Origin: a virus
Taxonomy: Duplodnaviria; Heunggongvirae; Uroviricota; Caudoviricetes
Length of the DNA stretch: 39,603 bases
IMG/VR virus record: IMGVR_UViG_2778261067_000006
Coordinates: 1 to 39,603 of that record
Direction: 5' to 3' (one strand)
How positions within the stretch are numbered: the stretch's first letter is position 1; each line of letters starts with the position of its first letter. Made by a program: the position numbers and the translations under genes. This document shows, one piece after another, positions 1,684-39,603 of this stretch. The notes beneath the pieces were generated by a model. That model made no database searches and was not told where the DNA came from. It saw only the letters and a list, made by a program, of their open reading frames with translations.

Positions 1684-1698
1684 TGGTGTCCCCTGCAG
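1684..1698 (-). other. 3'-terminal tRNA fragment (CTGCAGGGGACACCA on the minus strand); putative attR core
   Basis: The minus strand reads CTGCAGGGGACACCA, which matches the acceptor 3' strand plus discriminator and CCA of enterobacterial tRNA-Arg (argW-like) as I recall it. No upstream tRNA body is present, so this is a fragment. Confidence 0.45.
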
Positions 1699-1771
1699 AC
1701 ATCTACTTGAGGCGGCAGGGGATTGATTGGAATGGTGTTTTTTAGATGTGAAAAATATTTTACCCGCTATT

Positions 1772-1972
1772 TTACCCATTGGCGCGGCTTAAGAGCTTAT
1801 TTTTGAATTCACAATGGTCACGATATAACCATCTTGCTCGCCCGTGGATAACTTTGGCTTTTGGCAGGTCGCCGGACTTAATCCGGTCATAGATGAAGGT
1901 TTTACCGAAGCCAGTATCGGCCATGATGAATTTCAAATCAACCAGTGAATCAGGCTGTAGTTCGTGTTGCAT
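1772..1972 (-). CDS. AlpA-family helix-turn-helix protein (excisionase/regulator-like)
   Basis: 66-aa ORF with the pattern ...FIMADTGFGKTFIYDRIKSGDLP...RARWLYRD..., typical of AlpA/Xis-type small DNA-binding proteins. Lies next to the att-like fragments. Confidence 0.65.
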   Translation of the reverse strand: MQHELQPDSLVDLKFIMADTGFGKTFIYDRIKSGDLPKAKVIHGRARWLYRDHCEFKNKLLSRANG

Positions 1973-1990
1973 GAGTGCTATCTCCGAATA

Positions 1991-2005
1991 GGGAATCGAA
2001 CCTGC
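1991..2005 (-). other. tRNA T-arm-like fragment (GCAGGTTCGATTCC on the minus strand)
   Basis: 14-nt match to the T-stem/T-loop of the same tRNA-Arg-like sequence; the match breaks immediately after, so it is a fragment, not a gene. Confidence 0.35.
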
Positions 2006-35239: not shown

Positions 35240-37069
35240 ATGTCAGATATCACCGCAAATGTTGTGGTAAGCATGCCTTCGCAACTCTTCACTATGGCGC
35301 GTTCTTTTAAAGCCGTGGCTAATGGCAAAATTTATATCGGAAAAATTGACACTGACCCGGTAAATCCTGAAAACCAGATTCAGGTCTATGTTGAGAACGA
35401 AGACGGTTCTCACGTTCCTGTTGCACAGCCAATCATCATTAACGCTGGCGGGTATCCTGTATATAACGGACAGATTGCCAAATTCGTAACTGTGCAAGGC
35501 CATTCTATGGCTGTTTATGATGCGTACGGTGCGCAGCAGTTTTATTTTCCGAATGTGCTGAAGTATGACCCTGATCAGCTAAGAGTTGATTTATATGGCA
35601 TTTACGGTTCTACGCTTATAGGATGGGCAACATATGAAGATATAAGAAATTACTCAGGTAATGGCGAGATAATAAATTGCAGAGGTAGAAGTTATAAAAA
35701 TGATAATGGATGTGGTTTTTTTGTTGTTGATAAAATAGACACATCAGCACAAGATAATGACGGAACAATATTAGTTGATCTCCTTGGGAGAAGATGGAAA
35801 AGACAATTTGCAGGAGATATAAACGTTTCATGGTTTCTTGATGGAAACGGTCCTGATGTAAATTCATCAATTGGGTTTCAGAATTGCATTAATGCCTACC
35901 CGCACTCAAGGATTTTAATTCCTTTCGCACCAGATGGTTATTATTTTTTTAATGAGGTTGTTGAGCCGCAGAGTTCATCTTTTCAATTGATTTGTTGCGA
36001 CGGAATGCAAGTGAATAATCAACAGTTGATTTACGTTAATTTCAACGGGGCAGCATTCAAGTGTGAGTCAACAAATACAACTTTTACCAAGTATCAGGGA
36101 ATTCGTTTTGAGACGGACAAGGAGTCTTATCCTTTAGCACAAGCTATACGTAATGATGGGTTTTTAGTGCATGGGGAAATTAAAAATATAACTGTAAAAA
36201 ATTTCTCTAGCAAGGCAATACAGATAAACGGATGTAATTGTTGCAATTATGAGCAGGTTCTTATCCAGTTCAATGATGATTTTGGTCTTTTCACTCTTGC
36301 AGGTGCGGCTAATACATTCGACAGAATAGTCGGTGATAATAATAACGGTGGAGTTATGTACTCAGTCGGAGCATCTAACGCATATAGAAACTTATACTCC
36401 GAGGATTGCTGCAAAACCAACGTTAGCGCTTCTGACACAAATCCAGAGTTTTATTTCGGAGGTGATTCCCATACTGTTACAAATATCTCCATAAACTCCT
36501 ACCCCGGGAACGCCACACCTCCGGTTAAACTAGATTTCTGCCGCAATATGACAATGATTGGCGCATCCAATAAATCATCAACAGCGCCTTCATATTCATA
36601 TGAGATAGAGTTGACTAATCAGGATTCAAGTTTAACGCTTATCAACAGTTCCGATATACGCATTAAACCAGGCGTTGATTCTAAAAACACGATAAAAATA
36701 GATGCTGGTTACGCATCTTTATCTCCATCAATAGTTGTTGGTGGATATGGAAGAGATATAATAAAAAATACACCAATATCAACAGCGTGCTTCTCATCCG
36801 ATGGCACAATATTAGAGGCAAATGGTATAGCAAGGGTTGAATACAACACCACCGGAACTTATTCTATATATATGGCAGAACAGGTTAATAATGCTGAAGG
36901 AATTAGGGTTATAGGTAGTGCTGACGCGGAAGGATATGATTATTTTGTAGTTGTTTCTGAAAAAGGAAGCTTTAGAACAAATTCATCAGTAAGAATTGAA
37001 ACCAGAGATACTGCTGGAAACCTAGTTTCACCAAAACATGTTTCTGTGGCTATTTATGGATCTGTATGA
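35240..37069 (+). CDS. Tailspike: conserved P22-type N-terminal head-binding domain with a divergent receptor-binding/enzymatic domain
   Basis: First ~115 aa ([59 protein letters not shown]...VLKYDPDQ) nearly match P22 gp9; the remainder is unrelated and visibly AT-rich. Confidence 0.85.
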
Positions 37070-37170: not shown

Positions 37171-38232
37171 TTATCTTAGTATTATCCTCGCTATTTTAGC
37201 ACATGGTGCTTCAATCAACATATGTATGACCCATGCTATCGTTATAAACAAAATTAGAAGAAGCGACATTTTTGGAAATCCATGCATATTGCTTATATAT
37301 GGGATGCTGTACATGTATTTATTCAAGGCGTTATAAACAACCAAATGCGACAGATAAAGAGAATACGATATATTGGCAAAAAACATTAAAATTCTGTAAG
37401 TTCTAATGCCGTTTGTTATCTCAATTGATAAAAATGATAGAATAAGAATAAAACACCCAATCCCAACTTTATCAATTCCATGCCCATATTCAGGTGGCGA
37501 TATTATCATTATTATTGATAGCAGCAGCGCTAATATTTGCAAAGGAGAAATGAAGTTTCTTTTTATTGTGATGTTATTTTTTATAAACAAAAAAACATTA
37601 CACATAAGCATACCGATAACAAACTCAATCATCATCTGCGATGATGTTATCTTTACTATCGATTCTAGAGGCCCGTTTATGTTAATTGATGCGTAAGCAG
37701 AATAATCGCCGCTGTTATTGAAAATGAAGTTATTTATCACAAATAAAGTCAGTATAAAAACCGAACAAACAAATGCTCTGAATTTATGAGATATTAACAT
37801 TGATATTGTAAATATAAAATAAAACACAACCTCATAAGATAGGGTCCACGCTGCTGACACCATAGAATATCCATAGAATGGAGCTATAGATGAATAATCA
37901 TATTGTATGAAAAAAAGCGATTTATATAAATCTAAGGTGGTGTAGCTATTTATTGATAAAGCATAACTTATGAGAATGGCAATCAAATAAATCGGATATA
38001 TTCTAAAAAATCTCTTTATTGCAAATGATTTTATTGATGAGTCATTCTGTGTTGAAAAAACTATTACAAAGCCGCTTATCATAAAAAAAAGATCTACGCC
38101 AAAGTATCCATAGTCAAAAAGAATATCTCCTAAATTTTCCTGAGCATATGCTCCTGCAATTATCGATCTCAGATGAAAAAGAACTACAAAAAGAGCCGCA
38201 ACACCTCTAAGATAATGTATTGAAAGTACCAT
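37171..38232 (-). CDS. Acyltransferase-3 family integral membrane protein (Oac/OafA-like O-antigen acetyltransferase)
   Basis: 353 aa, about ten hydrophobic helices, N-terminal IHYLRGVAALFVVLFH motif; strongly AT-rich; sits between tailspike and integrase as oac does in Sf6. Confidence 0.75.
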   Translation of the reverse strand: MVLSIHYLRGVAALFVVLFHLRSIIAGAYAQENLGDILFDYGYFGVDLFFMISGFVIVFSTQNDSSIKSFAIKRFFRIYPIYLIAILISYALSINSYTTLDLYKSLFFIQYDYSSIAPFYGYSMVSAAWTLSYEVVFYFIFTISMLISHKFRAFVCSVFILTLFVINNFIFNNSGDYSAYASININGPLESIVKITSSQMMIEFVIGMLMCNVFLFIKNNITIKRNFISPLQILALLLSIIMIISPPEYGHGIDKVGIGCFILILSFLSIEITNGIRTYRILMFFANISYSLYLSHLVVYNALNKYMYSIPYISNMHGFPKMSLLLILFITIAWVIHMLIEAPCAKIARIILR

Positions 38233-38445: not shown

Positions 38446-39603
38446 TCACTCTACCTTCCCATCAATCCAGTCCGCCCACCACTGCATCATCTCCCTGCGC
38501 TTATCGAAATACTGCGCATGGTTGTAAATACCGCGCACAGATCCGCCGTTGGCATGTGCCAGTTGCACTTCAATAGCATCAGCAGGCCATTCGTGCTCGT
38601 TCATAATCGTGCTGAATTCATGCCTGAATCCGTGACCGCTTTCCAGCCCTTCATAGCCAATTTGTTTGATCACAAGCAATACCGCGTTCTCGCAGATTGG
38701 CTTCTTCTTATCGTTGCGCCCGGCAAAAACAAACTCTGAGACTGGTTTGGTGATTGAGCTTAGCGTAGTGAGAAGTTCAACCACCTTGTCTGACATCGGG
38801 ACCACATGAATTTTGCGTCCCTTCATCACACTGGCGTCGATGGTGATAATCCTGTTTTCAAAATCGACGTTCTTCCATAGCATGGAACGAAGCTCTTTTG
38901 TTCTTAGGGCTGTGTAGCGTAAAACTTTGGTCGCAATGAGCGATACGATACTTCCTGAAAATGTTGCCAGTGCTTTGTTGAATGCAGGGATCTGGTCTGC
39001 TGGAAGAAACGGGAAGTTCTTCTTGCGGTATCCCTTCATGGCGTCAGCAAGGTCAGGTGCTGGGTTATATTTAGCCCTTCCGGTGACAATAGCGTAACGG
39101 AAAACCTCGCCGCATCTTCTGCGTGCTTTGTTGGCTCGCTCCATTGCACCGCGATCTTCAAATCTGCGGATTACTTCCAGCAGTTGCATCGGCTCAATAT
39201 CCTGAATTTCAAGGCCGCCGATGATAGGTAAAATGTCGTCATCAAACATTTTTGCAAGTTCAGTTGCATAGCCTACTGACCAGACTTGCTTCTTGTGCTC
39301 GTACCATTCCTTGTAAATCGCACTAAAGGAATTGTTGTTAGACGAAGCCTTTTTCGCTTTTACCGGATCGATGCCAACCGAGATGTCTTTCCTCGCGGTC
39401 CATGCCTTATCCCTTGCCTCCTGCAAAGTCATAAGCGGATATTTTCCTACGGTCAGTATTTTTTCCTTACCGTCAATCTTGTAGCGAAGCTGCCATACCT
39501 TTTTCCCGGATACAGGGACATAAAGGTACAGGCCATTACCATCGAGAAGGCGATATGGTTTTTCTTTCGGCTTTGCTGCTTCAATCTGCTTAACGGTGAG
39601 CAT
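38446..39603 (-). CDS. int: Tyrosine integrase (P22/Sf6/CPS-53 IntS-like)
   Basis: 385 aa with catalytic-region motifs (…HGFRHEF…, …RGIYNHAQY); N-terminus MLTVKQIEAAKPKEKPYRLLDGNGLYLYV as in IntS-type integrases; start codon is the last base of the window. Confidence 0.9.
   Translation of the reverse strand: MLTVKQIEAAKPKEKPYRLLDGNGLYLYVPVSGKKVWQLRYKIDGKEKILTVGKYPLMTLQEARDKAWTARKDISVGIDPVKAKKASSNNNSFSAIYKEWYEHKKQVWSVGYATELAKMFDDDILPIIGGLEIQDIEPMQLLEVIRRFEDRGAMERANKARRRCGEVFRYAIVTGRAKYNPAPDLADAMKGYRKKNFPFLPADQIPAFNKALATFSGSIVSLIATKVLRYTALRTKELRSMLWKNVDFENRIITIDASVMKGRKIHVVPMSDKVVELLTTLSSITKPVSEFVFAGRNDKKKPICENAVLLVIKQIGYEGLESGHGFRHEFSTIMNEHEWPADAIEVQLAHANGGSVRGIYNHAQYFDKRREMMQWWADWIDGKVE

Follow-up and report, generated by a model that had tools for sequence, protein, structure and literature searches.

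We analysed a 39,603-nucleotide (nt) stretch of viral DNA (Caudoviricetes; IMG/VR record IMGVR_UViG_2778261067_000006, positions 1 to 39,603), which is called the window throughout. Near its left end, two short pieces of tRNA sequence lie on either side of torI, the gene of a recombination directionality factor (RDF). The attR end of a KplE1/HK620-type prophage ordinarily looks like this; the arrangement is already known and is present also in Escherichia coli K-12. Sequence comparison indicates, with high confidence, that the window holds a P22-like (HK620/Sf6-type) prophage inserted at the tRNA gene argW by means of a KplE1-type module, and that the piece upstream of torI, here named the T-arm box, is a phage-borne candidate cis-site. 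What is new is the conservation of this box upstream of torI across genera, which we regard as a modest lead.

Layout of the locus

On the minus strand, read in the direction of torI, the left end of the prophage consists of a terminator (2040-2021), TTTTTTATTACCTGAT, the T-arm box TTGCAGGTTCGATTCC (1992-2007, fragment 1 extended to 16 nt), the torI leader CTATTCGGAGATAGCACTC (1973-1991, with the Shine-Dalgarno sequence GGAG at 1982-1985) and the ATG of torI. The torI gene itself (1772-1972; hkaC of HK620, gene 18 of Sf6) encodes an RDF of 66 amino acids and is followed, on the same strand, by the P arm of attR (1699-1771) and by the attR identity segment CTGCAGGGGACACCATTTATC, the 21 nt that are common to attL (1678-1698). 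The terminator (2021-2040) is a bidirectional intrinsic one and a homologue of HK022 tL4, as seen from a terminator scan, the HK022 annotation and an alignment. To the left of the att site, bacterial intergenic DNA (1249-1677) leads to a cscB-type oligosaccharide transporter gene on the plus strand (1-1248), at whose ATG the window starts. The opposite, attL end of the prophage is occupied by intS, the gene of a P4-family tyrosine integrase (38446-39603, minus strand).

The original prediction was that two minus-strand fragments at this boundary together rebuild the T-arm and the acceptor 3′ end of an argW-like tRNA-Arg. Both fragments are present and unique. Within the whole window GCAGGTTCGATTCC occurs once (1992-2005, minus strand), with no second site even at one mismatch (shuffled sequences give 0.04 matches), and CTGCAGGGGACACCA occurs once (1684-1698, minus strand; shuffles give 0.03 matches at up to two mismatches). 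The upstream piece was, however, placed one position off: it starts at 1992 rather than 1991, and its true match to argW is the 16 nt TTGCAGGTTCGATTCC, which extend to 2007. The identity of the tRNA was confirmed by reading argW (tRNA-Arg CCU) from an unoccupied site, where it is GTCCTCTTAGTTAAATGGATATAACGAGCCCCTCCTAAGGGCTAATTGCAGGTTCGATTCCTGCAGGGGACACCA, ending ...GGGCTAATTGCAGGTTCGATTCCTGCAGGGGACACCA. Jointly the fragments match argW from the variable loop through to the CCA end; they are adjacent in the tRNA, with one C in common, and preserve its order and strand. Fragment 1 covers the variable loop, the 5′ T-stem, the T-loop and the first 2 nt of the 3′ T-stem. Since this 16-mer matches the stretch of the tRNA that immediately precedes the att core on its 5′ side, lies less than 300 bp from that core and is co-oriented with it, a chance match is excluded. 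ARAGORN finds no tRNA gene in the window, so the two pieces are fragments only.

Fragment 2 (1684-1698) is the 15-nt 3′ end of argW and lies inside the 16-nt KplE1/HK620 core at 1683-1698. KplE1 (CPS-53) resides at argW, with the 16-nt core CTGCAGGGGACACCAT duplicated at the prophage ends (PMC2951348), and the records of HK620 and Sf6 label the same 16 nt as the attP core. The window has the attR copy of this core; the attL copy was seen outside it, in the closest genome and in the remnant element EC42405 described below. Fragment 2 is a displaced tRNA 3′ end of the pawZ type, located at the distal junction and continuous with the bacterial flank. E. coli genomes with an unoccupied site match the window over 1249-1698 only and then run straight on into argW, with a tRNA-Arg annotated at the end of the match, and an artificial attB, reconstructed from the 3′ half of argW and the left flank of the window, finds 119-nt matches of 100% identity in several genomes. 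The bacterial DNA thus stops at 1698 and the prophage lies to the right, which makes the left boundary the attR side, as had been proposed.

The P arm holds two GGGTAAAA repeats, at 1770-1777 (overlapping the torI stop) and at 1758-1765, together with a conserved ATCAATCCCCTGC block and with GTAGATGTC adjoining the core. These blocks are kept across 13 lineages, and their equivalent in HK620 (1441-1463) is annotated as an attP repeat; published P′ arm-type sites have TAAA in common (PMC2951348). The E. coli core flanks, GATGTC / TGCAGGG / GACACC, form an imperfect inverted repeat (window flank 1699-1707), and the sequence suggests TGCAGGG as a putative 7-bp overlap. A small open reading frame on the minus strand (1648-1779; HK620 hkaB, Sf6 gene 17) overlaps the torI stop and crosses the att core. 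Its C-terminal part comes from bacterial DNA in the prophage, and its product would differ between phage and prophage; homologues are annotated as genes in HK620 and Sf6.

The integration module and its known relatives

The product of 1772-1972 is 100% identical to HkaC of HK620/Sf6 (Sf6 gp18; tblastn) and matches PDB entry 1Z4H, 'Tor inhibition protein' (E=6.6e-43); RefSeq labels the gene 'torI' on matching genomes. It stands at the end opposite intS and reads toward attR. The original prediction of an excision factor between the two fragments is borne out, whereas its description as 'AlpA-type' is loose: the one Pfam hit is to HTH_17 and, with 16.9 bits, stays below the cutoff of 27, Phage_AlpA (PF05930) is unlisted at E≤0.01, and the protein does not fall into the AlpA family. 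Some phage records give COG3311 AlpA for homologues.

The intS reading frame (38446-39603, minus strand) is complete, with 385 codons for amino acids and its ATG as the last three bases of the window; it reads inward, and not out of the window as first supposed. The integrase is 99% identical to that of CUS-3 and has the Pfam domains Phage_integrase, Phage_int_M and Arm-DNA-bind_3. Its adjacency to argW was read in the closest complete genome, EM18-18-42, rather than within the window. This genome is 98.6% identical over the segment tailspike-acyltransferase-intS, is the sole genome found with the whole stretch, and has a tRNA-Arg 162 bp past the intS ATG, followed by yfdC. By analogy with this relative, an intact argW would lie beyond 39603, in agreement with the tRNA that had been predicted immediately to the right of the integrase. 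An AT-rich gene of the acyltransferase family (37171-38232, minus strand; 353 amino acids) separates the tailspike gene (35240-37069) from intS, in the position usual for O-antigen-modifying (oac-like) genes of Sf6/HK620-type phages.

The locus follows the published layout of the KplE1-type module: the prophage begins with intS and ends with torI, in the phage the two genes stand on either side of attP, and they are transcriptionally uncoupled (PMC2951348, PMC3509656, PMC8787464). The dependence of excision on IntS, TorI and IHF has been shown for KplE1 and HK620 substrates (PMC2951348, PMC3509656). KplE1 of K-12 (argW-attL-intS ... torI-attR-pawZ) has the same integrase, an identical TorI, the same 16-nt core, P arm and argW position as the prophage studied here, and its torI ATG is preceded, at a distance of 19 nt, by the same T-arm box of 16 nt. 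In the K-12 record (NC_000913) the 15-nt tRNA-matching copy of the core, 73 nt after the torI stop, is annotated as the pseudogene pawZ. In contrast to KplE1, which is a 10-kb remnant flanked by dsdC, the window has a full-length P22-like prophage of about 38 kb beside cscB. The identity between attL and attR also differs, extending over 21 nt here because the native attB of the lineage already reads ...ACCATTTATCC.

The attP region of HK620 and Sf6 (hkaC/gene 18, 'attP core', 'bsq2' boundary) has 98% homology to the window over the whole stretch between core and terminator, torI and the box included. In the HK620 record the area of the box is overlain by a predicted 'phage integration' promoter pI (1664-1702) and by a cII site (1689-1701). 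Both labels were predicted on the model of lambda; the cII-like repeat has N5 spacing and not N6, in the window it reads TTAC...TTGC, and a promoter scan of the window finds nothing there.

Origin of the upstream fragment

The 16-mer TTGCAGGTTCGATTCC is identical in the phage records of HK620 and Sf6, in CUS-3 (where it forms the last 16 nt), in the EC42405 remnant and in KplE1 of K-12, where it is unannotated, and the arrangement of terminator, 16-mer, torI and core is found also in prophages of other genera. HK022 and 434, which have other int/xis modules, possess the upstream reading frame and the terminator and diverge after the T-tract ...TTTTTTATTG, 8 nt before the box. Sequence comparison thus marks fragment 1 as phage DNA and as the left edge of the torI-attP-intS module. 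Because the same arrangement occurs in HK620, Sf6, K-12 and other genera, the box arrived with the phage, which takes away the ground for a scar of integration in the host.

It had also been suggested that the att region is unusually long, with tRNA homology on both sides of the excisionase gene. Such homology is indeed intrinsic to the phage. However, excision in vitro works with a 135-bp attR for which the primer was placed in the last 20 nt of torI, so that fragment 1 was excluded (PMC3509656). Since this attR suffices without the box, fragment 1 lies outside the DNA needed for strand exchange. With the locus identified as the known KplE1/HK620 module, there is no case for an unusual att site or for an integration scar.

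EC42405 (L003 2380-6044) is a degraded argW element in which torI and attR are intact and intS is split into pseudogene fragments; genes for a PACE efflux transporter and a LysR regulator lie between the intS fragments and torI/attR. The torI/attR end, including the box, therefore persists in remnants.

In the GenBank record of CUS-3 (CP000711) the 16-mer TTGCAGGTTCGATTCC is labelled 'attR core' and the argW T-arm 'attL core' (L007 1-16, L008 1-16). In genomes whose DNA is identical to the last 600 nt of this record, torI follows after another 20 nt and dsdC comes next. As the CUS-3 integrase is IntS (99%) and torI lies beyond the end of the record, the record boundary was set on the wrong direct repeat, and torI, the P arm and the true attR are omitted from it. 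The labels, which equal the T-arm box and the argW T-arm, reflect an annotation choice and not a different mechanism, and on the same grounds we rejected the idea that the 16-mer is a second att core for another integrase. A prophage deletion by recombination of one 16-mer with the other was likewise rejected: the hybrid junction that it would create, with the 5′ part of argW joined to the box and torI, is found in 0 of 5426 complete E. coli genomes. The 16-nt repeat of argW and the torI leader is a decoy, and may mislead automated att-site callers for such argW prophages.

Conservation of the T-arm box across lineages

Homologues of torI were gathered from 24 species genomes, phage records and viral contigs. 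A scan of viral contigs with the TorI alignment gave only loci identical to that of E. coli, and the diversity was supplied by distant queries. The box, AGGTTCGATTYC, with the consensus (C/T)AGGTTCGATT(C/T)C, stands upstream of the RDF gene in about 12 lineages of Enterobacterales, 4-7 nt from the Shine-Dalgarno sequence (13 nt in Serratia). It is found in E. coli, Enterobacter, Citrobacter-like, Serratia, Pantoea and Edwardsiella/P. stewartii modules, and also in the Erwinia phages Midgardsormr38 and phiEt88 and in several viral contigs. The core TGCAGGGGAC(A/G)CCA lies about 75 nt past the RDF stop in every module with readable downstream sequence.

We compared the box with the rest of the module by mean pairwise identity in a MAFFT alignment of 13 lineages, all of them box-bearing. 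The value is 0.89 for the box, a figure inflated by ascertainment bias because lineages were picked for having the box, and 0.89 for the att core; torI codon positions 1 and 2 give 0.82, the P arm 0.65, torI codon position 3 0.56, and the leader sequence flanking the box 0.32-0.45. The selection criterion did not include the CAG that precedes the anchor or the CC that follows it, and these are still 88-100% conserved. The invariant part of the box is its 5′ half, GTTCGATT. Between E. coli and Serratia or phiEt88, nothing can be aligned in the leader besides the box.

Across the lineages the box is mostly intact or cleanly replaced, and decay is rare. Tandem duplications of it have arisen in at least three independent lineages. 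In Midgardsormr38-like phages (L113 ~1752-1785; also L143, L144 and L147), CAGGTTCGATTCCCGT is followed by CAGGTTCGATTCCCAC with a period of 16, and in L140 and L013 the box is duplicated at a period of 13.

Two contigs from metagenome-assembled genomes classified as 'Actinomycetes' (L014, JAEWEJ010000341.1) and 'Parachlamydiaceae' (L031, JBKEAL010000209.1) hold enterobacterial-type torI modules with the box, and L014 has an argW-type core downstream. Both contigs are probably contaminating or mis-binned.

Possible role and origin of the T-arm box

In the circular phage genome the terminator is followed by the T-arm box and torI, then by the P arm, the core, the P′ arm and intS. The integration crossover falls inside the core, so that intS stays beside the rebuilt argW (attL, just right of the window) and torI and the P arm land about 38 kb away at attR, with fragment 2 as the attR copy of the core. 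Fragment 1 would derive from the argW T-arm and would have been acquired once, in the ancestor of the module and not in this host. Where present, the box may be kept by selection as a cis-regulatory site for torI, and its most likely role would be that of an operator for the module's own recombination proteins.

In phage lambda, int and xis are controlled by their position relative to attP, with pI inside xis and retroregulation through sib. As in lambda, integration separates elements around attP from the integrase and RDF genes or joins them. In contrast to lambda, the RDF and integrase genes of the IntS/TorI module flank attP and are transcriptionally uncoupled (PMC2951348), and the module has no demonstrated sib-like or pI-like element.

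It is possible, and we propose it tentatively from motif content and conservation, that the box, over 12-16 nt, is a tRNA-derived operator copied from the argW T-loop and the left half-site of attB. Expression of the RDF would come under feedback from the integrase, the RDF or both, which would help to set the directionality of recombination and would account for the retention of the box across Enterobacterales phages. TorI sites on attL have been mutated at GTTCG, GATCG and GTCCG (PMC2951348). The box contains GTTCG, and in this window ATTCG stands 13 nt after it, overlapping the Shine-Dalgarno sequence. Several lineages have a second GTTCG, GTCCG or ATTCG 13 nt downstream, with the forms GTTCG-GAG or GTCCG-GAG at the Shine-Dalgarno sequence. 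The 3′ part of the box, GATTCC, equals the attB half-site that abuts the putative overlap TGCAGGG. The box would thereby combine the pentamer of the TorI sites with the left core half-site of attB, a putative B-type core site for IntS.

Several observations weigh against these readings. The box is absent from about half of the torI-like lineages examined and is, thus, dispensable for the module. In Dryocola (L017) it is cleanly deleted, and box-less modules with different upstream DNA are found in the phages Chronis (Klebsiella), Ehr49 (Erwinia) and Emek (Salmonella), in Arsenophonus, in Proteus and in others. Some E. coli prophages have a box that differs by a single base, and the choice of lineages favours its apparent conservation, as noted above. 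In phiEt88, the RDF is about 40% identical (39% by tblastn, 44% by global alignment) and the arm and putative RDF-site repeats differ while the box is retained, which points to a link with the common core and target rather than to a pure TorI operator. The promoter scan gave no sigma-70-like promoter near the box and inspection of hexamers by eye was unconvincing; a sigma-70 promoter at the box was, therefore, rejected. For the prophage as a whole, the position of argW is read from a relative, as the window's own right flank is absent.

Some of the same observations suit a neutral relic, a rather unlikely explanation that ranks next. The box would then be left over from the event that created the module, such as an aberrant excision that took up argW bases, and its conservation would reflect ancestry and the choice of lineages. 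The box stands 6-8 nt from the mosaic boundary of the module, it is absent in about half of the lineages and dispensable in vitro, and point variants of it occur in E. coli prophages. However, the box is conserved to the same degree as the att core, against the lower values for third codon positions of torI and for the leader in the same sequences; the leaders of E. coli and of Serratia or phiEt88 have no other alignment; and the box was duplicated in tandem three times independently and has rarely decayed.

As to its origin, the box may be an attL-type left junction that was carried into the phage genome by an aberrant event in the module ancestor. We infer this from its position at the module boundary, co-linear and co-oriented with the core, and from its tRNA homology, which stops at the edge of the overlap region or barely enters it (Serratia and Pantoea have ...CCTG). 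Two further ideas were set aside. An insertion of torI into a contiguous tRNA-like attP is unsupported: in most non-E. coli modules (L013-L023, L113 and L117) the P arm beside the core reads TTCGATGTn against TTCGATTCC in the tRNA, that is, T-loop homology with a conserved GT replacing TC. With TTCGATGTn beside the core, the two tRNA-like pieces overlap in tRNA coordinates and a simple insertion model is unfit. Ongoing gene conversion by the host tRNA was rejected because the 5′ T-stem of the box varies (GCAGG, CCAGG, ACAGG, CTAGG or ATAGG); every core requires GCAGG in the tRNA, so the box is not refreshed from it.

An RNA element is an unlikely alternative to the operator and ranks third, after the relic. 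The 3′ part of the box (AUUCC or AUUUCC) would pair with the Shine-Dalgarno sequence of torI (GGAGU or GGAGAU) in read-through transcripts and damp translation, or the box would mimic a T-arm for a tRNA-processing enzyme. Consistent with pairing, in most lineages 4-7 nt separate the end of the box from the Shine-Dalgarno sequence; single-sequence folds of Citrobacter, Pantoea, phiEt88, L141 and L146 give 5-6 bp between the two, and leaders of the Edwardsiella type make a perfect 6-bp hairpin, GACAGG-TTCGATTC-CCTGTC. The RNAalifold consensus, however, has only 4 bp (-0.77 kcal/mol), as does the HK620-type leader. The hairpin is inconsistent between lineages and has no clear covariation, and the part of the box that is invariant is the 5′ half, not the anti-Shine-Dalgarno part. 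Rfam gives no family at the gathering score for the box region. With weak 4-bp anti-Shine-Dalgarno pairing in RNAalifold and nothing from ARAGORN or Rfam, a conserved RNA hairpin or tRNA-like fold was rejected.

On the plus strand, 1922-2049 has a sub-threshold Rfam match to the sRNA family STnc130, with 30.7 bits where the gathering score is 55 (E=0.005-0.018). This STnc130-like match is antisense to the 5′ end of torI and to the box and extends as far as the plus-strand face of the bidirectional terminator (2021-2040); no recognisable promoter-like site accompanies it.

It is improbable that the box extends the att site, as a distal site for recombination proteins that makes recombination efficient in vivo on supercoiled DNA. 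The box does copy the left half-site of attB, GGTTCGATTCC, next to the putative overlap, and phiEt88 retains it, having otherwise only the core region and the target in common with E. coli modules. Against this, the 135-bp attR lacking the box excises in vitro (PMC3509656), and many modules with the same core carry no box.

Finally, the scar reading of the original prediction, extended here to successive or tandem insertions into argW of this host, with the upstream piece as the att remnant of a second element and torI in an older remnant, is as good as ruled out: the two pieces are co-linear with the tRNA on either side of a small gene, the argW-dsdC/csc locus is known as hypervariable (cited in PMC8787464) and the CUS-3 record labels the 16-mer 'att core', but the deposited genomes of HK620 and Sf6 have the same arrangement, as have K-12 and other genera, the CUS-3 label stems from a mis-set boundary, fragment 1 is without the overlap region, no second integrase lies between 1699 and 2300, and the hybrid junction is missing from the complete E. 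coli genomes.

Taken in order, a DNA operator for the module's own proteins would thus come before a neutral relic, and the relic before an anti-Shine-Dalgarno RNA element. The searchable literature has no description of TTGCAGGTTCGATTCC as a box in the torI leader, although a prior mention is possible in subscription papers beyond its reach. The promoter of torI, PtorI, has been called 'non-characterized' (PMC2951348), and the regulation of torI is described as uncharacterised. A box that stands by the Shine-Dalgarno sequence of torI and is conserved like the att core, and at times duplicated, may bear on how expression of the RDF is controlled, a question that concerns modules in which int and the RDF gene are uncoupled.

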